The position numbers were made by a program, and so were the translations under genes. Below the pieces are notes generated by a model. The model was given only the letters and a program-made list of their open reading frames with translations, did not search any database and was not told the DNA's origin. A stretch of 64,000 nucleotides of DNA from Coriobacteriales bacterium (GTDB lineage Bacteria > Actinomycetota > Coriobacteriia > Coriobacteriales > QAMH01). Below are positions 12,426-64,000 of this stretch, one piece after another. Numbering within the stretch: the first letter of the stretch is position 1; every line of letters starts with the position of its first letter. Location: the NCBI GenBank assembly GCA_051876105.1, contig JBJEHN010000072.1:6282-70281 (forward strand), in the 5' to 3' direction.

Positions 12426-12842
12426 ATGTACAGCAAGATCATGGTTGCCGTTGACGGCTCGGAGAACTCGCTCAGGGCTGTCGAGCAGGCTGCAATGCTC
12501 GCAGAGGCCAGCGGCCCGGACTGTCAGCTGAGGCTGCTCTCCGTCATCGCCATCGACGTCTACTCTGACATGGTCTACGACCCGCTGGAGGCGCACGGAG
12601 ACGCCCAGCTCGAGAAGGTGCGCCCCGCCATCGAGCTCTGCGCCAAGCGCGGCGTCCACGCAGAGGCCTTCCTGCTGCACGGCCGCCCCGCTGAAGAGAT
12701 CGTCCGCGTTGCAGAAGAAGGCAACGCAGACCTGCTCGTGGTCGGTTCCCGCGGCCTCAACGCCCTTCAGGAGCTGGCGATCGGCAGCGTGAGCCACAAG
12801 ATCATCAAGCACGCCAAGTGTCCTGTCCTCGTGGTGAAGTAG
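12426..12842 (+). CDS. Universal stress protein (UspA family)
   Basis: MYSKIMVAVDGSENS...ADLLVVGSRGLN...GSVSHKIIKHAKCPVLVVK. Confidence 0.85.
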   Translation: MYSKIMVAVDGSENSLRAVEQAAMLAEASGPDCQLRLLSVIAIDVYSDMVYDPLEAHGDAQLEKVRPAIELCAKRGVHAEAFLLHGRPAEEIVRVAEEGNADLLVVGSRGLNALQELAIGSVSHKIIKHAKCPVLVVK

Positions 12843-12912
12843 CGCACGCTGCGCCGCAGCCTTTTCGTATGGAGGCCGCCGAACAGGGGAGCGCGGCCAC
12901 GGACTTGCGCGC

Positions 12913-13527
12913 TTAGAGCTGCAGCTCCTCGCCGGGGCGCAGGACGGTCTTGCCGGGGCCGCTGAAGGCCGCGGCCTTCTCCTCATCGAAGAGCACAGCC
13001 TGGCGCACGTCGTGCACGGGCACCAGGTGCAGGGGGATGCTGTGGCGCGCCGCCACCAGCTCTGCGCAGCGCGACGCCTCCTCCACGTCCATGTTGTAGT
13101 AGCCGTCTGCCGGGAAGGTCGCGTAGTCGAGCCCCATGGCCGCCAGCCTGCCGCTGGCCATGTCCTGAGTGAGCGAGGTGTCGCCCGCTGCATAGAACCT
13201 GATGCCGTCCAGCTCGAGCACCAAGCCTACGCACTCGTCAACCGGGTGGTAGGAGTTGCAAGCCTGCACGGCCGTGATGCGCACGCCCTTGGCCTGCAGC
13301 GTGCGGTGCTGCCCGCCCTCGAGGAAGTCCGCCGCCCGCAGCACCTGGCAGCCCGGGTTGTGCGGCATCTTGCCAACCTCGTAGTGGTCCGGGTGCTCGT
13401 GGGTCACCAGCACCAGGTCGGCGGGGACGTCGTAGCCCTCGCCCAGGCTGGGGTCCACGTAGATGACGGTGCCGCAGTCGGCCGTGATGCGGTAGCTGCC
13501 GTGGCCTTGGTAGAGCATGGTGGTCAT
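12913..13527 (-). CDS. MBL-fold metallo-hydrolase
   Basis: ...VIYVDP...LVLVTHEHPDHY... (HxHxDH motif). Start set to ATG 13527, 6 nt after AAGGGGA. The track start 13533 is a GTG abutting the RBS. Confidence 0.75.
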   Translation of the reverse strand: MTTMLYQGHGSYRITADCGTVIYVDPSLGEGYDVPADLVLVTHEHPDHYEVGKMPHNPGCQVLRAADFLEGGQHRTLQAKGVRITAVQACNSYHPVDECVGLVLELDGIRFYAAGDTSLTQDMASGRLAAMGLDYATFPADGYYNMDVEEASRCAELVAARHSIPLHLVPVHDVRQAVLFDEEKAAAFSGPGKTVLRPGEELQL

Positions 13528-13554
13528 CGCCACTCCCCTTTCAACCGGCGCGCC

Positions 13555-14139
13555 CTACAGCGCGGCGATGGCGTCTGCCAGGATCGCCTCGGCATCGTTG
13601 CCCCAGATGTCGAGGCCCTCGGCGCTGATGCAGCGGCTCTCCGCGATACCGAAGTACAGCTTGCACACGGCCGCCACGTAGTCGTAGCCCATGTTGTACT
13701 CGCCCAGGTAGCCGCCCGCCGTGGTGACGTAGGTCAGCCGCTTGGCCAGGCAGTGCCCCACGGGGACGCCTTCCTCGCTGTACGAGAACGTGAGTCCGTT
13801 GACACAGAGCTGCTCGATATAGCTCTTGAGCATCGCGGGGAAGCTGAGGTCCCAGTACGGGGCCGCGATAACGACCTCGTCGGCCTCGCGGAACTGCCGC
13901 GCCGGCGCGAACATCTCGTGTGAGAAGTCCTTCTCCGCCGCCTTCTCGCCGCGGAAGGCCAGGGTCTCCTCGCTCAGGCCCTCGATGCCGGCATCCACCA
14001 GCGAGAGCTCTTCGACCTGGGCGCTCTCACCCGCCGCCGCTGCCTCCTCGAGCATCTTGTCGAGCACGGCGTCTGCCAGGCGTTGGGTGCGCGAGCTCTC
14101 CTGGTTCACGCAAGCGTTCACAAACAGGATGGTCTTCAT
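13555..14139 (-). CDS. Flavodoxin-like fold NAD(P)H-dependent oxidoreductase (azoreductase/quinone reductase-like)
   Basis: MKTILFVNACVN...ADEVVIAAPYWDLSFPAMLKSYIE... resembles the FMN-dependent NADH-azoreductase family. Start ATG 14139 follows GGAG. Confidence 0.65.
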   Translation of the reverse strand: MKTILFVNACVNQESSRTQRLADAVLDKMLEEAAAAGESAQVEELSLVDAGIEGLSEETLAFRGEKAAEKDFSHEMFAPARQFREADEVVIAAPYWDLSFPAMLKSYIEQLCVNGLTFSYSEEGVPVGHCLAKRLTYVTTAGGYLGEYNMGYDYVAAVCKLYFGIAESRCISAEGLDIWGNDAEAILADAIAAL

Positions 14140-14171: not shown

Positions 14172-14283
14172 GCAGCAGCTCGGCTGAGTGCGAGCAGCTG
14201 CCGCGACGGGCGAAGGGAGCGGCCTTGGGGCGCCGTGGCCGGAGCCCGGAGCCGCAGATGTGCGTGCTCAGCCGAGCTGCTGC
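14172..14283 (-). repeat. Conserved 3'-end element copy 1 (after valS): 17-bp perfect inverted repeat arms flanking a 78-nt core
   Basis: Arms are GCAGCAGCTCGGCTGAG (14172-14188) and CTCAGCCGAGCTGCTGC (14267-14283, including the valS stop and last codons). By manual alignment the core 14189-14266 matches core 24246-24323 at about 69/78 positions. Confidence 0.7.
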
Positions 14284-16967
14284 TCAATCAAGGCCAGCTG
14301 CTGGCGCAGCTCCGCCTGCTGGGCGCGGGCCTTCTCCACGGCCTCCGGCGCAGCCTTGGCCACGAAGTTCTCGTTGGAGAGCTTCTTGTCGAGCTTGGCC
14401 AGCTCGCCGCGCGCCTTCTCCTGCTCCTTGAGCAGGCGCTTGCGCTCGGCCTCGAAGTCGACCAGGCCGCTCAAGACCACATGGACCTCGATGTCGCCGG
14501 CCAGGGTGACACTGCTCTCCGCGGGCTTAGGCGCGTCTGCCGCCAGGAACTCGTAGCTGGTGAGGCGCGCCATGTTGGTGATGAGCGCGGCCTCGGCCTC
14601 GATGAGCTGCTGCTGGGCGGCCGCCTGCTCGCCGGTGAGGCGGATGGCGACGGCCAGCTCCTGGCGCGGCGAGATGCCGTAGCGGGCGCGGGTGGCGCGC
14701 ACTGCGGAGATGATGCCAGTGGCGCCGGTGATGGCGGTCTCGGCGTCCTCGTCGATCCAGCGCTCCAGCGCGGCCGGGTCGGGCCAGGCGGCAACCATCA
14801 GCGCGCTGGCATCCTTGGCCACGGGCAGGTGCTCCCAGATGGCCTCCGTGACGAAGGGCATCACGGGGTGCAGCAGGCGCAGCGAGGTGTCGAGCACGAA
14901 GACCAGGTTGCGCTGGGCCTGTAGCTTGGCTGCGGCGTCGTCGCCGGCGAGCACACCCTTGCTGAGCTCGATGTACCAGTTGCAGAACTCGTTCCAGAAG
15001 AAGTCGTAGAGCTCGCGCGCGACCTCGCCAAAGCGGTACTCCTCGATGCCGTCGGTCACGAAGCGGGCCAGCTTGGCCAGGCGGCTGAACATCCAGGCAT
15101 CCGCCGCCGTGGCGGCCTGGGGCTCACCGGGCTCGAAGCCCTCGAGGTTCATCCACACAAAGCGGCTGGCGTTCCAGATCTTGGTGACGAAGGCGCGGGC
15201 TGCCTCCGTGCGGGGGCTGTCGACGAGCTGCTTGGTCTTCTTGTCGATGTTGGCGTCGAACTTGACGTCCTGGTTGCCGGTGACCAGCGTGAGCAGGTTG
15301 TAGCGCATGGCGTCTGCGCCGTACATCTCGATGAGGTCCATGGGGTCGACGCCGTTGCCCTTGGACTTGGACATGCGGCTGCCGTCCTTGGCCAGGATGG
15401 TGGCGTAGATGAAGACGTCCTCGAAGGGGATCTCCCCGGTGAAGTAGAGGCTGCTCATGACCATGCGGGCAACCCACAGGGCGATGATGTCGCGTGCGGT
15501 GACGAGCACCTTGGTGGGGTGGTGGCCCTCCATCTCCTGGGGGTTGTCGGGCCAGCCCTGGGTGGCAAAGGTCCACAGCTGGCTCGAGAACCAGGTGTCG
15601 AGCACGTCCTCTTCCTGGGTCACATGAGCGCAGCCGCACTCGGGGCAGACGCTGGCGTCCTCCATAAGGGCGTCCTCCCAGCCGCACTCAGGGCAGTGGA
15701 AGACGGGGATGCGGTGGCCCCACCACAGCTGGCGCGAGATGCACCAGTCCTTGAGGTTCTCCATCCAGGTGGTGTAGGTGCTGGTCCAGCGCTGCGGGTG
15801 GAAGGTGACGGCGCCGCTGTTGACGGCATCGAGCGCGGGGCCCTTGAGCTTGTCAACGGCCACGAACCACTGCTCGGAGAGCCAGGGCTCGAGCGTGGAG
15901 TCGCAGCGGTAGCAGTGCATGACGGAGTGGTCGTGGTCCTCCACGTGGTCGAGCAGCCCGTGCTCCTCGAACCAGGCCACCACGGCCTCGCGGCACTGCT
16001 CGCGGGTCATGCCGGAGAACTCGCCGTAACCCTCGACCACCACGGCGTGCTCGTCGAAGATGCTGATCTGGGGCAGGTCGTGCGCCTGGCCCATGGCGTA
16101 GTCGTTGGGGTCGTGGGCAGGCGTCACCTTGACGAAGCCCGAGCCAAAGCCCTTCTCCACATGCCAGTCGGTGAAGATGGGGATCTCGCGACCCACAATG
16201 GGCAGCACCACGGTGGCGCCGGCCTCTGCCAGCGCGGCCTTCTCCGGGTCGTCCGGGGAAACGGCCACGCCCGTGTCACCGAGCATGGTTTCCGGCCTGG
16301 TGGTGGCCACGACGATGTACTCCACGCCGTTGACGGGCTCCTTGAGGGGGTAGCGCAGGTGCCACAGGTGGCCGTGCTCGTCTTGGTACTCGGCCTCGTC
16401 GTCGGAAATGGCGGTGGTGCAGTGGGGGCACCAGTTCACGATGCGCTTGCCGCGGTAGATCATGTCGTCGTGGTACCAGTCCACGAAGACCTTGCGCACG
16501 GCCTTGGCGTACTCCGGGCTCATGGTGAACTTCTCGTCGTCGAAGTCGACGGAGCAGCCCATGCGCTTGATCTGCTCGACGATGATGCCGCCGTACTCTT
16601 CCTTCCACTCCTGGCAGGCCTCGAGGAACTTCTCGCGGCCGATGGCGCGGCGGTCGATGCCCTGCTCCTTGAGCTTCTTGTCGACCTTGGTCTGGGTGGC
16701 GATGCCCGCGTGGTCGGTGCCCACGATCCAGCGGGTGCTGTAGCCGCGCATGCGGGAGTAGCGGATGTAGGTGTCCTGGATGGTGTCGTCGAGGGCATGG
16801 CCCATGTGGAGCATGCCGGTGACGTTGGGCGGCGGGATGACGACGGTGCGGTCGCCCTTGCCGGGCTGGCCTTCGCTGCGGCGGTAGTAGCCGCCCTCGA
16901 GCCACTTGCCGAGGATGCGCTCCTCAGTGGCCCCGGGCTCGTAGGTCTTGGGCATCTCTTCTGCCAT
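14268..16967 (-). CDS. valS: Valine--tRNA ligase
   Basis: 899 aa with PPPNVTGMLHMGHA (HIGH) and RMSKSKGN (KMSKS) motifs and a C-terminal coiled coil. Confidence 0.97.
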   Translation of the reverse strand: MAEEMPKTYEPGATEERILGKWLEGGYYRRSEGQPGKGDRTVVIPPPNVTGMLHMGHALDDTIQDTYIRYSRMRGYSTRWIVGTDHAGIATQTKVDKKLKEQGIDRRAIGREKFLEACQEWKEEYGGIIVEQIKRMGCSVDFDDEKFTMSPEYAKAVRKVFVDWYHDDMIYRGKRIVNWCPHCTTAISDDEAEYQDEHGHLWHLRYPLKEPVNGVEYIVVATTRPETMLGDTGVAVSPDDPEKAALAEAGATVVLPIVGREIPIFTDWHVEKGFGSGFVKVTPAHDPNDYAMGQAHDLPQISIFDEHAVVVEGYGEFSGMTREQCREAVVAWFEEHGLLDHVEDHDHSVMHCYRCDSTLEPWLSEQWFVAVDKLKGPALDAVNSGAVTFHPQRWTSTYTTWMENLKDWCISRQLWWGHRIPVFHCPECGWEDALMEDASVCPECGCAHVTQEEDVLDTWFSSQLWTFATQGWPDNPQEMEGHHPTKVLVTARDIIALWVARMVMSSLYFTGEIPFEDVFIYATILAKDGSRMSKSKGNGVDPMDLIEMYGADAMRYNLLTLVTGNQDVKFDANIDKKTKQLVDSPRTEAARAFVTKIWNASRFVWMNLEGFEPGEPQAATAADAWMFSRLAKLARFVTDGIEEYRFGEVARELYDFFWNEFCNWYIELSKGVLAGDDAAAKLQAQRNLVFVLDTSLRLLHPVMPFVTEAIWEHLPVAKDASALMVAAWPDPAALERWIDEDAETAITGATGIISAVRATRARYGISPRQELAVAIRLTGEQAAAQQQLIEAEAALITNMARLTSYEFLAADAPKPAESSVTLAGDIEVHVVLSGLVDFEAERKRLLKEQEKARGELAKLDKKLSNENFVAKAAPEAVEKARAQQAELRQQLALIEQQLG

Positions 16968-18454: not shown

Positions 18455-18560
18455 GAACGCGAACTTTCGCCTCTCGGGTGCGAACCCCAGCCTCCCCGGT
18501 GCGAACTCTGCCTCCCTGGTGCGAACTCTGCCTCCCTGGTGCGAACTCTGCCTCCCTGGT
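18455..18560. repeat. Tandem array of a 20-bp unit GGTGCGAACTCTGCCTCCCT (3 perfect, 1-2 degenerate copies)
   Basis: Perfect copies at 18498-18517, 18518-18537 and 18538-18557. A 21-bp variant is at 18477-18497 and a degenerate copy at about 18455-18476. Confidence 0.9.
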
Positions 18561-18564
18561 TAAG

Positions 18565-18749
18565 CAAGAGTCAGCGAGGGTTCGCTGAGTGCGTGCAGCA
18601 GGCGCGAAGCCGCAAATGCTCCGCCCCAGGTCTAACCAAATCCTCACAGGTCCAACCAAGAGTCAGCGAGGGTTCGCTGGGTGCGTGCAATGGCCCCGCG
18701 CCTAGGGCCGTAGCGTACTTCGCTACGTGAGGCCCGTAGCGCGGGGCCA
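18565..18749. repeat. Repeat-dense intergenic segment: two 33-bp direct repeats plus a nested palindrome
   Basis: CAAGAGTCAGCGAGGGTTCGCTG(A/G)GTGCGTGCA occurs at 18565-18597 and 18657-18689 (32/33 identical). The palindrome is TGGCCCCGCG...CGCGGGGCCA (18691-18749) with an inner CGTAGCG-TACTT-CGCTACG. Confidence 0.85.
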
Positions 18750-18807
18750 GTGTGCGTGCCCAGCGAAGCCGCAGCGTCGGCTCAAAGCCCGAGGAACGAG
18801 GGCTTTA

Positions 18808-21645: not shown

Positions 21646-21682
21646 AAATGGGACAGTGGGGACTGTCCCCACTGTCCCATTC
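21646..21682. terminator. Conserved palindromic bidirectional terminator, copy a
   Basis: AAAATGGGACAGTGGGGA-CTG-TCCCCACTGTCCCATT lies between convergent genes (the + gene stops at 21642, rsmA stops at 21691). Confidence 0.75.
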
Positions 21683-22572: not shown

Positions 22573-23129
22573 CGCACCTCCTCTGCAATGGCGCGCGCCA
22601 GCTCCGGCACGCGCTCGAGCCGGTAGCTGCCGGCGGTGAAGTCGTGCACGCGCTGTGGCTCCAGGCGCAGGCCCGTGCTGTTGAGTGCGCTGGTGGCGAT
22701 GGCAACCAGCGGCTCGTAGCCGAAGGGGTCGCCGCCCTCCCCCACCGCCAGCAGGTGGGCCGGGCGCTTGGGCGGCAGAGGCCGGCCGAGCACGTAGCGG
22801 CGCGCCCAGTAGACCTGGCAGCGGTCGAGCGCGGCCTTGAGCCAGCCGCTGGGGCCGGCGAAGTAGACGGGTGCCACCACCACAGCGGCGCTGCAGGAGT
22901 CCATGTGACGGCTGAGCACGCCGAAGCCGTCCCCCGCGATCACGCACTCGCCCGTGGCAGAGCAGCTGCCGCAGCCCGTGCAGGCGGCGACGGGGTACTC
23001 GGCCAAGGGGTAGAGGCACACGCGGCAGCCCAGCTGGCGCAGCTCGCCGGCAAGCGCCTTGGCAAGGGCGGCGCTGCGGCCCTCCTTGCGCGGGGAGCCC
23101 ACCAGTATCAGGACCTCGGGTTGCGTCAC
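22569..23129 (-). CDS. Iron-sulfur flavoprotein-like (Isf / NADPH-dependent FMN reductase fold)
   Basis: VLILVGSPRKEGRS... flavodoxin-like N-terminus plus the compact Cys motif CTGCGSCSATGEC (CX2CX2CX5C). GTG start 23129 overlaps the tatD stop (GTGA) and follows GAGGAGGAG. Confidence 0.7.
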   Translation of the reverse strand: MTQPEVLILVGSPRKEGRSAALAKALAGELRQLGCRVCLYPLAEYPVAACTGCGSCSATGECVIAGDGFGVLSRHMDSCSAAVVVAPVYFAGPSGWLKAALDRCQVYWARRYVLGRPLPPKRPAHLLAVGEGGDPFGYEPLVAIATSALNSTGLRLEPQRVHDFTAGSYRLERVPELARAIAEEVR

Positions 23130-24187
23130 AGCTCCTCCTCGGGGTAGCGCGGGCGGTCGAGCAGCTCGACGGCGTTGCGGTACAGGCGCTGGCACATGCC
23201 CAGCTCGTCCAGCCCGCCCTGCAGGGCGGTAAAGCTTGGCTGCAGCAGCGGGCGAGGCTCCTCGCCTTCCGGCAGGTCCATGGGGCGCGGGCTCATCAGC
23301 TCCAGCGCGCGCTCCCGCCCCGCATAGCCCAGGCAGTCGAGCAACATGCGCAGGGTGTAGGCGGTGTGGGCCGGCTCGCAGACCACGCCGCGCAGGGGCT
23401 CGGGCGCCATGAAGGGGGCGTCTGTCTCTGTGAGCAGGCGCTCTGCGCTCACCAGGGCAACAGCGGCCCTGGTGCCGCACTCCCTCTTGAAGGTGAGCGG
23501 GCCGCCCAGTGCAACGTGGCAGCCCAGCTCGGCAAAGGGCTCCAAGTCCTGCGGGCCCAGGTTGAAGCAGTGCAGGATGCAGCCCGCTTGGGGCACACCT
23601 TCGCGCTTGAGGATCTCCAGGGCCTCGGCATGGGCCTCGCGGATGTGCAGCGAAACCGGAAGCCCCAGCTCATGGGCCATGTTCAGCTGCAGGGCGAACA
23701 CGCGGCGCTGGTCCTCGCGCGGGCTTTTGTCGTAGTGGTAGTCGAGGCCGATCTCTCCCAGGCAGCTGGTGGCGGGGTGGGCCAGCAGCTCCTCCAGTAT
23801 GGGCCGGCCGAAGTCCCAGCAGCGCGCGTTGTGCGGGTGCACGCCGCAGGCCATGCGGATGACGGGGACCTCCGCGCCCGCCATGCCCCACTCGTCGAGC
23901 AAGGTGCGCGCGGCGGCGCGCCATTCGCCCAGGCGCGCGTAGATGTCCCTCGACCAGACCTCGCCTTCGGCCTGCTCGGCTGGGTCGGTGATGCACTCGA
24001 TGAAGCCCACCCCGTGCGCAGCCGCGCGGGCGAGCGCCAGCGGCACGTCCGCCAGCATGCCCAGGTGGCAATGCGTGTCTGCAACCGGCGCACCCTGCGG
24101 CAGCACCGGCGCCGCCTTCAGCTTCCCCTTGGAGTTGCGGAAGGCGGCGTCGCACGCCTCAAAGCTCTTGAAATCACTCAAAGACAT
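23126..24187 (-). CDS. TatD-family metal-dependent hydrolase/DNase
   Basis: VADTHCHL...ACGVHPHNA...GEIGLDYHY...SLHIREAH...ILHCF...ETDAPF. Start is ambiguous (ATG 24187 after GAGAGG, or ATG 24217). Confidence 0.85.
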   Translation of the reverse strand: MSLSDFKSFEACDAAFRNSKGKLKAAPVLPQGAPVADTHCHLGMLADVPLALARAAAHGVGFIECITDPAEQAEGEVWSRDIYARLGEWRAAARTLLDEWGMAGAEVPVIRMACGVHPHNARCWDFGRPILEELLAHPATSCLGEIGLDYHYDKSPREDQRRVFALQLNMAHELGLPVSLHIREAHAEALEILKREGVPQAGCILHCFNLGPQDLEPFAELGCHVALGGPLTFKRECGTRAAVALVSAERLLTETDAPFMAPEPLRGVVCEPAHTAYTLRMLLDCLGYAGRERALELMSPRPMDLPEGEEPRPLLQPSFTALQGGLDELGMCQRLYRNAVELLDRPRYPEEEL

Positions 24188-24230
24188 GAAACCTCTCATG
24201 CAAGTCAACGTCCGCACGCCCCGGTGCCGC

Positions 24231-24338
24231 GTAGCGGTGCGAGGGTGCGTGCAGCTGCAGCGACCAGCGAAGGGAGCGGCCTTGGCGTGCCGTGACCGGA
24301 GCTGGGAGCCGCAGATGTGCGTGCCCTCGCGCCGCTAC
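24231..24338 (-). repeat. Conserved 3'-end element copy 2 (after metG): 15-bp inverted repeat arms flanking the 78-nt core
   Basis: Arms are GTAGCGGTGCGAGGG (24231-24245) and CCCTCGCGCCGCTAC (24324-24338, spanning the metG stop), with one T/G position. Core is 24246-24323. Confidence 0.7.
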
Positions 24339-25867
24339 AGCCTGGGGAAGAGGGCGTCGCCCTTAACCACTGTGTTGCCGGCGGGCAGGCCGCCCCACTG
24401 GGCAGCCTCCGCGCCGTTGCGGACCTCGGTGGCCTTGCCCAGGCCAAGGCGCGCGTAGAGCTCGTCGCTGGTGGTGGGCATGAAGGGGCACAGCAGCAGG
24501 GCGCTGATGCGGCAGGCCTCCAGGGCGTTGTAGAGCACGGCGGCCAGCTGCGGCAGGGTCTCCTCGGCCTTGGCGAGGTTCCAGGGCGCGCTCTCCTCAA
24601 CGTAGAGGTTGGCGCGGTGCACCAGCTCCATGATGGCTGCGGTCGCGCCGCCGAAGTCGACGTTGCGCAGGCAGGCGGCGTACTTGGGGTAGAGCTCGTC
24701 CGCGATCTCCTTGAGCGGGTTTTCCGCCAGCTCGGCGGGGCAGGCGGGCACCACGCCGTCAAAGTACTTGACCGTCATGTTGGAGACGCGGCTGAACAGG
24801 TTGCCATAGCTGTTGGCGAGGTCGGCGTTGTAGACCTGGGTCATGCGGTCGAGACCGATGTTGCCGTCGGAGCCGAAGGTGACGTCGCTCATGAAGTAGT
24901 AGCGGTAGGCGTCGACGCCGTAGGTCTCCATGAGCTGGCGCGGGTAGAGCGCGTTGCCCTTGGACTTGGACATCTTGGAGCCGTCTGCAGCCATGAGGAA
25001 GCCGTGGGCGAAGACGTGCTTGGGCAGGGGCAGGCCGGCGGCCATGAGCATGGCGGGCCAGATCACGCAGTGGAAGCGGATGATGTCCTTGCCCACGAAG
25101 TGGAAGTCAGCCGGCCAGCGGCGCTGGAACTCGGCCTCGTCCTCAGAGCCGTAGCCCAAGGCGGTGAGGTAGTTGATGAGGGCGTCGACCCACACGTAGG
25201 TGACGTGCTCGGAGTCGAAGGGCAGCGGCACGCCCCAGTCGAAGGTGGAGCGGCTGATGGAGAGGTCGTGCATGCCGCCCTTCACAAAGCTCATGACCTC
25301 GTTGCGGCGGATCTCCGGGCGGATGAACTCGGGGTTCTCCTCGTAGTAGGCGATGAGCTTGTCGCCGAACTCGCTCAGCTTGAAGAACCAGTTCTCCTCC
25401 TTGATGGGCTGCACGGGGCGGCCGCAGTCGGGGCAGCAGCCGTCGACGAGGTCCTCTTCGGCGAAGAAGGTCTCGCAGGGGGTGCAGTAGAGGCCCTCGT
25501 AGGAGTCCTTGTACAGGTAGCCGTTGTCATAGAGGGTCTGCAGGAACTTCTGCACGCCGGTCATGTGGCGCTCTTCGGTGGTGCGGATGAAGTCGTCATT
25601 GGTGATGTCGAGGTCGCGCCAGAGCTCCTGGAACTGCGGGAGCTGGCTGTCGCACCACTCCTGCGGGGTCATGCCGTGCTCGGCAGCGGACTGGGCGACC
25701 TTCTGGCCGTGCTCGTCGAGGCCGGTGAGGAAGTGCACGTCCTGGCCGTCGAGGCGGTTGAAGCGGGCGATGGTGTCTGCCGCAATGGTGGTGTAGGCGG
25801 TGCCGATGTGGGGCTCGCCGTTGACGTAGTAGATGGGGGTGGTGATGTAGAACGGTTGCTGGCTCAT
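24335..25867 (-). CDS. metG: Methionine--tRNA ligase
   Basis: MSQQPFYITTPIYYVNGEPHIGTAYT (HIGH-type), KMSKSKGN, and a CPDCG zinc knuckle. Start ATG 25867. Confidence 0.95.
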   Translation of the reverse strand: MSQQPFYITTPIYYVNGEPHIGTAYTTIAADTIARFNRLDGQDVHFLTGLDEHGQKVAQSAAEHGMTPQEWCDSQLPQFQELWRDLDITNDDFIRTTEERHMTGVQKFLQTLYDNGYLYKDSYEGLYCTPCETFFAEEDLVDGCCPDCGRPVQPIKEENWFFKLSEFGDKLIAYYEENPEFIRPEIRRNEVMSFVKGGMHDLSISRSTFDWGVPLPFDSEHVTYVWVDALINYLTALGYGSEDEAEFQRRWPADFHFVGKDIIRFHCVIWPAMLMAAGLPLPKHVFAHGFLMAADGSKMSKSKGNALYPRQLMETYGVDAYRYYFMSDVTFGSDGNIGLDRMTQVYNADLANSYGNLFSRVSNMTVKYFDGVVPACPAELAENPLKEIADELYPKYAACLRNVDFGGATAAIMELVHRANLYVEESAPWNLAKAEETLPQLAAVLYNALEACRISALLLCPFMPTTSDELYARLGLGKATEVRNGAEAAQWGGLPAGNTVVKGDALFPRL

Positions 25868-34112: not shown

Positions 34113-34318
34113 AGACCGAAGGCGAGCAAGGCCGGGGAGGTCGCCTGAAGGGATATTCCCGGAGCAGAGTCCGCCTGGAGGCTTTTCGGGGCCGAGGACT
34201 GTCTGAGGGCCGAAGGCCCGAGTTCCGCAGGCGAAAAGCCGGAAGGCGGACTCGGGTGCGCAGGGCTATCCCTTCAGGCGACCTCCCCGGCCTTGCTCGC
34301 TCCCCGCAGGTTCGGTCT
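34113..34318. repeat. Long (about 206 bp) near-perfect inverted repeat/hairpin between the phosphoesterase gene and rpoB
   Basis: A perfect 34-bp arm GCGAGCAAGGCCGGGGAGGTCGCCTGAAGGGATA (34121-34154) pairs with 34267-34300. Outer AGACCGAA/TTCGGTCT and inner GAGTCCGCCTGGAGGCTTTTCG/CGAAAAGCCGGAAGGCGGACTC extend the structure. Confidence 0.9.
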
Positions 34319-38660: not shown

Positions 38661-38707
38661 AAAAAAAAATGGGACAGTGGGGACGTACCCCACTGTCCCA
38701 TTTTTTT
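38661..38707. terminator. Conserved palindromic bidirectional terminator, copy b
   Basis: A9-TGGGACAGTGGGG-ACGTA-CCCCACTGTCCCA-T7 lies between the convergent RR (stop 38644) and htrA-like gene (stop 38721). Confidence 0.8.
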
Positions 38708-40405: not shown

Positions 40406-40443
40406 AAAATGGGACAGTGGGGACGTACCCCACTGTCCCATTT
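40406..40443. terminator. Conserved palindromic terminator, copy c
   Basis: AAAATGGGACAGTGGGG-ACGTA-CCCCACTGTCCCATTT, 9 nt after the permease stop (40452). Confidence 0.75.
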
Positions 40444-51010: not shown

Positions 51011-51029
51011 GCGCGCAGCCGCAGAGGGC

Positions 51030-51069
51030 AAAAATGGGACAGTGGGCTACGTCCCCACTGTCCCATTTT
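51030..51069. terminator. Conserved palindromic terminator, copy d
   Basis: AAAAATGGGACAGTGGG-CTACGT-CCCCACTGTCCCATTTT, 14 nt after the argG stop (51083). Confidence 0.75.
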
Positions 51070-51082
51070 CGCGTGCAGGTGC

Positions 51083-62939: not shown

Positions 62940-63015
62940 TGGTGGGCGTTACAAGATTTGAACTTGTGACCTCTTCCGTGTCAGGGAAGCGCTCGTCCCC
63001 CTGAGCTAAACGCCC
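62940..63015 (-). tRNA. tRNA-Val (anticodon GAC), CCA encoded
   Basis: Hand-folded cloverleaf: acceptor GGGCGTT/AACGCCC, anticodon arm CTTCC-CTGACAC-GGAAG, T-arm ACAAG-TTCAAAT-CTTGT; 76 nt. Confidence 0.95.
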
Positions 63016-63043
63016 ATCGGCCGCGTTTCATCGGCAAGGAGAT

Positions 63044-63071
63044 ACTATACAGCATCCTCAGAATTGCACAA
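63044..63071 (-). promoter_or_regulatory. Candidate promoter for tRNA-Val
   Basis: Minus strand reads TTGTGC-16 nt-TATAGT, about 28 nt upstream of the tRNA 5' end. Confidence 0.45.
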
Positions 63072-63143
63072 GCCCCTAATTTCAAAGAATCGCAATTCTT
63101 ATCGCGATACGCAGCAACAGCGGCAATTTTTTTGATTTTTTGC

Positions 63144-63172
63144 TTGCCTGACCCTGCTTCTTCCAGTATAGT
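63144..63172 (+). promoter_or_regulatory. Candidate promoter for the tRNA-Gly/Cys/Gly cluster
   Basis: TTGCCT-17 nt-TATAGT, with the -10 ending 14 nt before the first tRNA-Gly. Confidence 0.5.
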
Positions 63173-63186
63173 ATCGGCTTGCGCAC

Positions 63187-63262
63187 GCGGAAGTGGCTCA
63201 GTTGGTAGAGCACAACCTTGCCAAGGTTGGGGTCGCGGGTTCGAGCCCCGTCTTCCGCTCCA
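63187..63262 (+). tRNA. tRNA-Gly (anticodon GCC), CCA encoded
   Basis: Acceptor GCGGAAG/CTTCCGC, anticodon arm CAACC-TTGCCAA-GGTTG, T-loop TTCGAGC; 76 nt. A hairpin plus TTTT follows at about 63273-63300. Confidence 0.95.
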
Positions 63263-63321
63263 TTGATTGATCGGGAGCCGGCTTTCCAAGTCGGCTCTTT
63301 TCGACAAAGGGCGCATGGGTT

Positions 63322-63395
63322 GGCGACGTGGCCAAGCGGTAAGGCAGAGGCCTGCAAAGCCTTTATCACCGGTTCGATTCCGGTCGTCGCCTCCA
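63322..63395 (+). tRNA. tRNA-Cys (anticodon GCA), CCA encoded
   Basis: Acceptor GGCGACG/CGTCGCC, anticodon arm GAGGC-CTGCAAA-GCCTT, A13-A22 mismatch in the D-stem, T-loop TTCGATT; 74 nt. Confidence 0.93.
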
Positions 63396-63400
63396 CTTTT

Positions 63401-63476
63401 GCGGAAGTGGCTCAGTTGGTAGAGCACAACCTTGCCAAGGTTGGGGTCGCGGGTTCGAGCCCCGTCTTCCGCTCCA
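63401..63476 (+). tRNA. tRNA-Gly (anticodon GCC), identical second copy
   Basis: The 76-nt sequence is identical to 63187-63262. It is followed by the hairpin GGGTCGCC-TCAAC-GGCGGCCC plus TTTTT (about 63485-63512). Confidence 0.95.
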
Positions 63477-63546
63477 CAATCCCCGGGTCGCCTCAACGGC
63501 GGCCCTTTTTCCGAGGCTTCGGTAGTTTGTGTGGTAGGGGTCTAGC

Positions 63547-64000
63547 CTAGGCGGCAGCGCTCCTCGCCCCCTCCCTGCTCTTCTTGGCCTTCTTCTTCAC
63601 CTTCGCCGGGCGGCCCGGGAGCTGGGGCTGGCAGTCGCCGCACCTGAGCATGAGCAGCGCCACGAGGTTGTCGGTGTTGCGGAAGCCGTAGCCCATCCTC
63701 ACCGTCACCTTGATCTTGTTGTTGATGGCCTCGACCCTCCCGTTGCTGATGCCGAGCTCGACTGCGGCGACGATGTCGTCGCGGCGGCGGCGCACCTTCT
63801 TCTCCACGGCCACGACCTTGGCGATCTTGCAGTAGGCGGCCCTGTGCATCCAGTCGTCGAGCAGCTCGGCGGCCTCCGCGGCGTCTGCGGCCTGGAAGAC
63901 GGCGCGCAGGTCCTCCTTGAGCTCCCATGCCCTGATCAGCCTCGAGCCGGCCCTCTTCTTGAGCGCCTCGAGCCTGGCCCTCTGGTTGTCGGTGAGGTCC
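63547..64000 (-). mobile_element. ISL3-family transposase gene, C-terminal part only (5' part beyond window end)
   Basis: Own translation: ...DLTDNQRARLEALKKR...WELKEDLRAVFQA...LLDDWMHRAAYCKIAKV...ISNGRVEAINNKIKVTVRMGYGFRNTDNLVALLMLRCG. This shows the characteristic SNG-VEG/AiNNKIK...YGFRN block of ISL3 transposases. IS ends not determined. Confidence 0.8.

Follow-up and report, generated by a model that had tools for sequence, protein, structure and literature searches.

Hairpin repeats with site-specific outer stems behind valS, metG and other genes of an uncultured Coriobacteriales lineage

Two hairpins of about 110 bases each lie directly after the genes for valyl-tRNA synthetase (valS) and methionyl-tRNA synthetase (metG) in a 64,000-nucleotide stretch of contig JBJEHN010000072.1 from a Coriobacteriales bacterium. 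This stretch, called the window below, has a G+C content of 67%, carries 44 of its approximately 50 genes on the minus strand and encodes a valyl-tRNA synthetase (ValRS) that is 76% identical to that of Slackia. The question raised by the locus is what two such similar structures are doing behind two synthetase genes. An initial annotation had described them as a conserved element of these genes and had hinted at a function at the RNA level. The explanation favoured here, to which about half of our confidence is given, is that the element is a lineage-restricted, low-copy, non-autonomous duplicative hairpin repeat and not a synthetase-specific regulator. On this reading, its position behind two synthetase genes is incidental.

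The two intact copies, A1 behind valS and A2 behind metG, consist of a shared core placed between outer arms that differ from site to site. Their parts, together with the host genes, are the following (bit scores refer to the covariance model introduced below):

14268-16967, minus strand: valS, encoding ValRS of 899 amino acids (Pfam tRNA-synt_1, Anticodon_1 and Val_tRNA-synt_C)
14268-14283, minus strand: gene-side outer arm of A1, formed by the last five valS codons (Q, Q, L, G and part of E) with the stop codon TGA at 14268-14270 (open reading frame and Pfam)
14188-14267, plus strand: core of A1, with the bracket GTGCGAGC at 14188-14195, a 64-nt imperfect inner hairpin and the bracket GTGCGTGC at 14260-14267 (100.3 bits)
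14172-14187, plus strand: distal outer arm of A1, a non-coding reverse-complement copy of the valS 3' end that pairs at 16/16 positions with 14268-14283
24335-25867, minus strand: metG, encoding methionyl-tRNA synthetase (MetRS) of 510 amino acids from MSQQPFY onwards (Pfam tRNA-synt_1g and Anticodon_3; start set by the homologues P0121-P0128)
24325-24338, minus strand: gene-side outer arm of A2, formed by 10 nt of 3' untranslated region (UTR), the metG stop codon TAG at 24335-24337 and the last base of a Leu codon
24245-24324, plus strand: core of A2, with GTGCGTGC brackets at both ends (107.1 bits)
24231-24244, plus strand: distal outer arm of A2, pairing with 24325-24338 and absent from the empty site of the relative L149

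Both gene identities, as given in the initial annotation, are confirmed by Pfam. The two 80-nt cores are identical at 71 of 80 positions (89%), and the earlier count of 69 matches between 78-nt cores proved exact. Moreover, both conserved blocks occur exactly twice each in the window, compared with 0.13-0.20 occurrences expected by chance. The unit itself is a 64-nt imperfect hairpin between direct 8-mers, GTGCGTGC, which read KTGCGYGC across lineages; the left bracket is GTGCGAGC in A1 and GTGCGCGC in L045, a representative metagenome-assembled genome (MAG) of GTDB. The same elements are present in independent assemblies (L054 and L055; L045; L155 and L156), and they are therefore no assembly artefact.

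The outer stems had been reported as perfect or near-perfect inverted repeats, which is what they are. At valS, all 16 pairs form, or 17 when the terminal G-C pair of the brackets is included, and the metG stem has 13 Watson-Crick pairs and one U.G pair, or 15 pairs with that of the brackets. The related statement that one arm is made of the last codons and the stop codon is correct at valS, where five codons and TGA compose the arm and the stop abuts the core. It does not hold at metG, where the gene contributes only G and TAG and the other 10 nt lie 3' of the stop. The C-terminus of ValRS (...IEQQLG*) is normal for its family, so the gene-side arm is ordinary coding sequence and the distal arm must be the copy. 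This distal arm is missing from relatives that have no element, and it co-varies with a valS codon in L045.

The element is not limited to the synthetase genes. A covariance model was built from four A-type cores, and two further members were recognized in the window, both located in the 18565-18800 repeat region for which relatives of the element had been claimed:

18670-18770, plus strand: copy B, a diverged homologue with GTGCGTGC brackets at 18681-18688 and 18752-18759 and a 63-nt inner hairpin (covariance model, 32.8 bits, E 2.5e-5)
18589-18619, plus strand: internally deleted A-type copy, in which the left bracket and 11 nt are fused to the right 11 nt (gapped local alignment to A2)

Copy B, whose full diverged hairpin spans 18681-18759, is separated by 48 nt from the stop codon of the preceding glycosyltransferase gene, and the infC promoter is downstream of it. 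Its outer stem has 11 bp with one mismatch (18670-18680 with 18760-18770), and its alignment with the model shares AGG..AGCG..CUU..CGUGA..CCG.AGC in addition to the brackets. As a control, 842 kb of IMG/VR sequence chosen only for the bracket pair gave no match to the model at E<=0.1. The deleted copy is without approximately 41 apical nucleotides, and none of 500 shuffles reached its alignment score. Another member was found in the relative L151 (MetRS 90% identical), where a decayed homologue starts 1 nt past the stop codon of an ABC-ATPase gene, on the opposite strand from the flanking genes; its score is 23 bits, and in the apical domain it is identical to A1 at 25 of 31 positions (0/500 shuffles). 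A search by blastn-short with the cores against the window and the relatives gave no more full copies. The element is thus a family with further members and not a pair of sequences, so the case of just two copies, named in the initial annotation as speaking against its proposal, does not apply. Its orientation is uniform at all five sites in four intergenic loci: the neighbouring genes are co-directional, and the G-rich strand is antisense to them.

The surroundings of copy B are repetitive as well. A duplicated module, CCAAGAGTCAGCGAGGGTTCGCTG[A/G], is present at 18565-18588 and 18657-18680, each time adjoining a GTGCGTGC bracket, beside the deleted copy and copy B, respectively; on the gene strand it forms a small terminator-like hairpin followed by CTCTTG. 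A tandem array at 18463-18560, with about four copies of the 20-nt unit ctgcctccctggtgcgaact, also adjoins the bracketed hairpins. It lies in the spacer between the glycosyltransferase gene and infC, which is unusually long in the window and far exceeds the approximately 215 nt of L151.

Relatives with and without the element allow the insertion sites to be compared. The features concerned at metG are the following:

23126-24187, minus strand: gene of a TatD-family hydrolase, downstream of A2 and on the same strand as metG (Pfam; exact protein NCBI MGN0038423.1)
24190-24230, minus strand: 41-nt spacer between A2 and the tatD ATG, containing a Shine-Dalgarno sequence (GAGAGG) and missing at the empty site

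In L149, whose MetRS is 96% identical, the end of metG reads CTG TAA CGTTC ATG, which leaves a spacer of 5 nt to tatD versus 147 nt in the window. There, the spacer comprises 10 nt, the 80-nt core, 14 nt and the 41-nt stretch with its new Shine-Dalgarno sequence. The metG spacer of L150 (MetRS 91%) has 2 nt, and L151-L153 (90%) contain at metG a small hairpin that is not related to the element. The filled metG allele was recovered from other samples (L155 and L156) with a single change, which falls at a mismatch position.

At valS, three relatives have no element (L056, with a ValRS 95% identical, L057 and L060; range 83-95%). In these genomes, valS ends with TAG and is followed by an ordinary terminator, GCGGCCCCGATCCGGGGCCGC-TTTTTT, and the two genes downstream of valS are inverted relative to the window. 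In L154, overlapping genes occupy the valS site. In contrast to these empty sites, L045 has the full element at valS, identical at 106 of 112 positions within 5.5 kb of 93% DNA identity. In L059 (ValRS 87%, same C-terminus), a diverged copy begins directly after TGA, and the contig ends after approximately 24 nt of it, while a 63.7-kb NCBI MAG contig stops four codons short of the metG stop. Assemblies therefore tend to break at the element. These alleles fit a repeat that has reached new spacers by copying on at least a few occasions, with the metG site filled recently, the valS site being older, and the glycosyltransferase and ABC-ATPase sites decaying. As a separate observation on L045, this MAG contains an extra 1.9 kb (positions 641-2538) between the Usp and lactamase genes, which includes a perfect 65-nt palindrome at 2410-2474 and a PAS-GGDEF gene; in the window, this interval has only 70 nt.

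The same comparisons bear on the idea that the element is a cis-regulatory RNA of class I aminoacyl-tRNA synthetase genes, such as a 3' operator, a tRNA mimic or a stop-codon context element. In its favour, both intact copies stand behind the only two synthetase genes of the window, the stop codon is inside the stem at both genes, and the deleted copy is upstream of the infC-rpmI-rplT-valS cluster. Nevertheless, other members follow glycosyltransferase and ABC-ATPase genes, relatives with 95-96% identical ValRS or MetRS have no element, and one core would have to serve both Val and Met. Moreover, the structure is worse on the mRNA strand, and neither a T-box nor another Rfam family was matched. 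A specific link with synthetases is thus contradicted both in the window and in its relatives, and such a regulator is considered very improbable. A role as tRNA-anticodon mimic or as SECIS-like signal at the stop codon was dropped, as the stops differ (TGA, TAG and TAA) and one core accompanies two synthetases.

Sequence changes within the family preserve pairing. The CGGGC/GCCCG versus CCAGC/GCTGG difference, earlier proposed to be compensatory, is a real case of two adjacent compensatory pairs, which account for four of the nine differences between the A1 and A2 cores. The other five are in loops, bulges or already mismatched positions, and no pair is broken. Where the L045 core departs from that of A1, it does so in loops or at the variable bracket position. 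A paired position differs only in the outer stem, where valS has GAG (Glu) in L045 and CAG (Gln) in the window, and where the distal arm has changed complementarily; the GAG state is common to L045 and the element-less relatives. Across four sequences, 99.4% of cells pair, compared with 18-47% in controls with slid partners. Both partners differ among these sequences in six pairs, four of which are in the outer stems. Since the outer stem at valS has no homology to that at metG, these four changes are evidence for pairing and not for descent. The suggestion of a conserved helix is therefore borne out. A riboswitch-like pairing of the distal arm with a downstream segment was also considered; it is strong in L045 and absent in the window, so it is not conserved and was rejected.

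Compensatory changes alone do not imply an RNA function, because replication template switching gives the same pattern at the DNA level (PMC8794818). Such switching can create perfect stems, homogenise and expand their arms and introduce multibase compensatory changes in a single event (PMC8794818), and it has been treated in further work (PMC8604942; PMC13100816). The element resembles the resulting quasipalindromes in the one-step reverse-complement copying of adjacent sequence and in the homogenisation and expansion of arms (Monttinen and Loytynoja 2022, PMC8794818; PMC8604942; PMC13100816). In this process multibase compensatory changes need no selection, and coding sequence can take part. 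Template switching would fit the perfect 16-bp valS stem with its ordinary coding arm, the Q/E co-variation and a third copy of the arm motif nearby in L045, which repeated switches would be expected to leave. In contrast to the element, it is a mutational process, and it leaves the move of the core to new loci, the mismatches and the direct brackets unexplained.

Another property of the family is the unequal quality of the fold on the two strands. In the plus-strand fold, the left and right brackets are joined by G-C pairs that alternate with tandem U.G/G.U pairs, the internal loops consist entirely of purines (G.A; GA/AG; GAA/GGA; GA/GR), and one G.U pair is present in the apical stem. On the minus strand, the same positions turn into C.A and pyrimidine mismatches. 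The predicted folding energies of A1 are -85.2 kcal/mol for the plus strand and -71.1 kcal/mol for the minus strand, and those of A2 are -80.2 and -59.8 kcal/mol, respectively; all four folds are 5.9-8.5 standard deviations below those of shuffled sequences. The plus-strand fold is better by 13-20 kcal/mol in all three bracketed hairpins, and no such asymmetry is seen in the hairpins at 2238-2370 and 34122-34300 or in the D8 hairpin family of the window. As the strand antisense to the synthetase genes gives the clearly better structure, a simple 3'-UTR role does not fit.

This asymmetry gives rise to the alternative that the functional form is a structured nucleic acid on the plus strand, either a small RNA or a single-stranded DNA hairpin for a HUH-type transposase or another nuclease, with the brackets and purine loops as recognition features. 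Apart from the purine loops and the energies, the latter distinguishing the bracketed hairpins from the other hairpins of the window, this alternative is favoured by the tandem U.G/G.U bracket pairing that is available on the plus strand only, by apical loop nucleotides kept into another species (25/31), by non-Watson-Crick positions that are held while Watson-Crick pairs co-vary, and by the uniform orientation. It is weakened by the lack of a HUH or RAYT gene among the open reading frames tested and of any Rfam match. Scans for promoters and terminators at all three loci on both strands found nothing except two small terminator-like hairpins beside copy B; for a plus-strand RNA, no sigma-70-like promoter or terminator was seen, and the simple terminator scan found no U-tail. 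In addition, genes co-oriented with replication would make the plus strand the leading-strand template, which is not the strand that IS200/IS605-type elements are known to use, and the asymmetry amounts to only 6 versus 1 when counted as independent motifs. The alternative is thus regarded as unlikely, although it is the strongest of the competing explanations.

Database searches revealed no known relative of the element. The comparison with Rfam, proposed in the initial annotation, returned only four tRNAs for the whole window at the gathering threshold, and permissive scans of the three loci gave only weak look-alikes of microRNA precursors far below threshold, with no family match and no T-box. 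A scan of 185,579 GTDB representative genomes for AGGGAGCGGCC-N15-35-GGAGCCGCAG produced 53 matches, one being the true copy in L045, a MAG of the same lineage, and 52 being due to chance; this two-anchor pattern misses diverged copies, and its second anchor is a poor one that the L059 version would not match. In JGI metagenomes, an 18-mer had 83 matches, all of them by chance (identity <=47/80). Nothing related to the element was found in IMG/VR with three patterns or in PLSDB with blastn, and a concatenated six-frame translation of both cores matched none of 5.8 billion proteins at E<=10. The family appears to be confined to an uncultured lineage of Coriobacteriales.

Well-known small hairpin repeats exist in Proteobacteria (REP, REPIN, ERIC and Correia) and Mycobacterium (TRIT and MIRU). 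We know of none described in Coriobacteriia. We place the element in this class of small bacterial hairpin repeats, where it is closest to TRIT and REPIN. What is unusual for the class are its flank-derived outer stems, its constant direct bracket and its strand-asymmetric structure.

In Mycobacterium, the TRIT motif forms a conserved hairpin that is repeated in 147 copies and overlaps with stop codons (Gardner et al. 2011, PMC3152330). Judged by the reported features of TRIT, the element is similar in being actinobacterial, restricted to a genus or lineage and composed of repeated stem-loops tied to gene termini that have no canonical U-tail. Both start within the coding sequence (TRIT at about -8, the element at -16 at valS) and have the stop codon in the hairpin. 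The stops at 14268-14270 and 24335-24337 lie inside the stems, and the L151 copy begins 1 nt past a stop. The conserved sequence of TRIT itself overlaps the gene end, whereas the overlapping part of the element is site-specific and the copies are few. Furthermore, TRIT is largely palindromic and bidirectional, while the element has a 13-20 kcal/mol asymmetry between strands and a single orientation between co-directional genes, which is not the pattern of a near-palindrome acting in two directions.

REPINs are mobile hairpin repeats, and REP/REPIN sequences are mobilised by RAYT transposases (Bertels and Rainey 2011, PMC3116915; PMC3337134). The element shares with them a size of approximately 80-110 nt, a non-coding, extragenic, hairpin-forming and lineage-specific character, compensatory changes that keep pairing, and presence or absence that differs between close relatives. 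Other REPIN features are not shown for the element: two inverted REPs, a conserved 5' motif of the GTAG type, a RAYT gene of their own and copies in the tens to hundreds. The element is a long imperfect hairpin, whose arms differ at 14 fixed non-Watson-Crick positions and whose 8-mer brackets are direct and not inverted. The feet of A1, A2 and B differ from each other, and the GTAG of A2 is the metG stop context and not a REP foot tetranucleotide. To our knowledge, neither direct 8-nt brackets nor flank-derived outer stems are known for REPINs.

The direct brackets might also be read as target-site duplications. In this alternative, the 64-nt inner part would be a DDE-type miniature inverted-repeat transposable element (MITE), and GTGCGTGC would be an 8-bp duplication made on insertion into the loops of pre-existing hairpins, represented by the outer stems. 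Elements of the IS1397 type do target REP loops, and the ISL3 family, of which a transposase gene is present in the window, makes 8-bp duplications. Moreover, the sequence between the 8-nt direct repeats has ends that are inverted-complementary at 12 of 16 positions. Set against this, the 8-mer is identical at every copy, including the diverged B, unlike duplications of arbitrary targets. The empty metG site of L149 contains neither GCACGCAC nor a hairpin, so the constant 8-mer is missing from it, and the element-less valS alleles have a different terminator. The ISL3 end, GGCCCTTTTTCCGAGG, is unrelated to the ends of the element, the outermost inverted repeats are site-specific, and the gene-side arm at valS is coding sequence with a normal C-terminus. 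A DDE-type origin is therefore improbable, and no insertion sequence (IS) or MITE could be identified as the source of the copies, which the initial annotation had considered as a possible explanation.

More general similarities exist to MITEs and mosaic repeats such as Correia, ERIC, BIME and NIME, which are small and non-autonomous, lie in or beside transcription units, can fold as RNA and may supply stop codons or affect mRNA stability (PMC2229807). MITEs differ in combining conserved terminal inverted repeats with variable direct duplications, while the element combines site-varying inverted repeats with a constant direct repeat. In NIMEs, too, short conserved repeats bracket inserts that vary. 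An integron attC site (RYYYAAC ... GTTRRRY) was rejected as well, as the boundaries read GTGCGWGC ... GTGCGTGC, the flanks are essential housekeeping genes, and no integrase is encoded among the open reading frames tested.

According to the favoured explanation of a non-autonomous duplicative repeat, copies would land in a short spacer just 3' of a stop codon, with a co-directional gene next to it and always in the same orientation. The hairpin base would then be lengthened at each site by a reverse-complement copy of the adjacent sequence, which at valS consists of the last codons and the stop. We attribute the outer arms to replication template switching in the form of fold-back copying, and this process may afterwards keep the two arms complementary. 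In the mRNA, the predicted product is a stem-loop of -60 to -71 kcal/mol that contains the stop codon and might stabilise the transcript at its 3' end or between cistrons, or terminate part of the transcription; such a role would be plausible, since TRIT has the same position and the D8 hairpins of the window also stand at gene ends. The family, its empty sites, the conserved pairing, the uniform orientation and the site-specific arms are observed, whereas the mode of copying, the origin of the arms by template switching and any effect on RNA are inferred.

Several points weigh against this explanation. Neither the 41-nt right flank nor the inner 9 nt of the metG outer stem exists at the empty site, and no match that could be a donor of the metG flank sequences was found elsewhere in the window. 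No mobilising enzyme was recognized, as the open reading frames of the window tested with Pfam included no integrase or HUH/RAYT protein, and the sole transposase found is an ISL3 fragment with a terminal repeat unrelated to the element. The constant direct 8-nt brackets are not accounted for by template switching, which, if frequent, should also erase the fixed mismatches. Instead, the non-Watson-Crick positions (five G.U, eight G.A and one A.C or C.C) are kept from copy to copy, and with one exception they favour the strand antisense to the genes, which suggests selection on the non-mRNA strand. The copy number also looks low, with two intact copies, one diverged and one deleted within 64 kb and a single anchor-pattern match in the GTDB representative MAG, a count that is limited by assemblies breaking at the element and by anchors overlooking diverged copies. 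Finally, both intact copies stand behind the only two synthetase genes among approximately 50 genes, a coincidence with a chance of ~1e-3 in a post hoc calculation; it does not indicate a specific link, because the other family members and the empty alleles contradict one.

A further reading is that the element may be a new kind of self-propagating hairpin, neither MITE nor REPIN, whose G-rich strand is recognised by an unknown structure-specific enzyme or primes itself, and whose insertion copies the upstream flank. Its recognition features would be the fixed tandem G.U brackets and the sheared G.A loops. Layer by layer it would extend outwards, forcing the final codons of essential genes to pair, and the Q/E change at the C-terminus of ValRS would be an example of this effect. 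This version is rated as unlikely.

The neighbourhood of the two intact copies shows some further peculiarities. The immediate downstream neighbour of A1, transcribed in the same direction as valS, is the following gene:

13555-14139, minus strand: gene of a flavodoxin-like NAD(P)H oxidoreductase (Pfam; exact protein NCBI MGN0038413.1)

This gene and a metallo-beta-lactamase gene form a pair (12913-14139) that is inverted compared with three close relatives (cf. L056:3496-4729 and L057:12714-13947), and A1 lies exactly at one junction of the inversion. At the other junction (12842-12915), no significant remnant of the element was detected (116-184 of 300 shuffles), and no inverted repeats that would explain the inversion were found. 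At the other copy, metG and tatD share a reading frame (24187-24338), in which only the TAG stop interrupts a frame that is open through the element; at valS, too, this core frame (..THICGS..) and the downstream gene are in register.

Other hairpins and repeats are present in the window. The D8 family is another repeat-type hairpin family at gene ends. A second conserved hairpin, AAAATGGGACAGTGGGG-loop-CCCCACTGTCCCATTTT, occurs in four copies (21647-21681, 38663-38707, 40408-40442 and 51028-51072) at gene 3' ends; it is strand-symmetric, has A-run and T-run flanks and looks like a repeat-type family of bidirectional terminators. A 179-nt hairpin at 34122-34300, between the metallophosphoesterase stop (34333) and the rpoB start (33891), combines a perfectly paired outer stem of 34 bp with an imperfect inner hairpin, without GTGCGTGC brackets or strand asymmetry. 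A 133-nt imperfect hairpin at 2238-2370, with 57-nt arms that are 72% complementary, is located downstream of the GAPDH gene. Near the end of the window, a cluster of four tRNA genes (62943-63473) includes two identical copies at 63187-63259 and 63401-63473, and the 3' part of the ISL3-family transposase gene (63547-64000, minus strand) runs off the window end. The ISL3 terminus, which reads GGCCCTTTTTCCGAGG inward, lies near 63501, beside the tRNA gene at 63401-63473.

In this family, filled and empty alleles, an arm made of coding sequence and a compensatory change that accompanies an amino-acid replacement are visible together. It is thus a useful case for deciding whether template switching or RNA-level selection builds and preserves the stems of hairpins at gene ends. 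The element also matters in practice, as it breaks metagenome assemblies at valS and metG and has parted formerly coupled cistrons, with the spacer between metG and tatD growing from 5 to 147 nt and gaining a new Shine-Dalgarno sequence. If the signal on the antisense strand is a real recognition structure, the family would point to a mobilising or binding protein that is as yet unknown.

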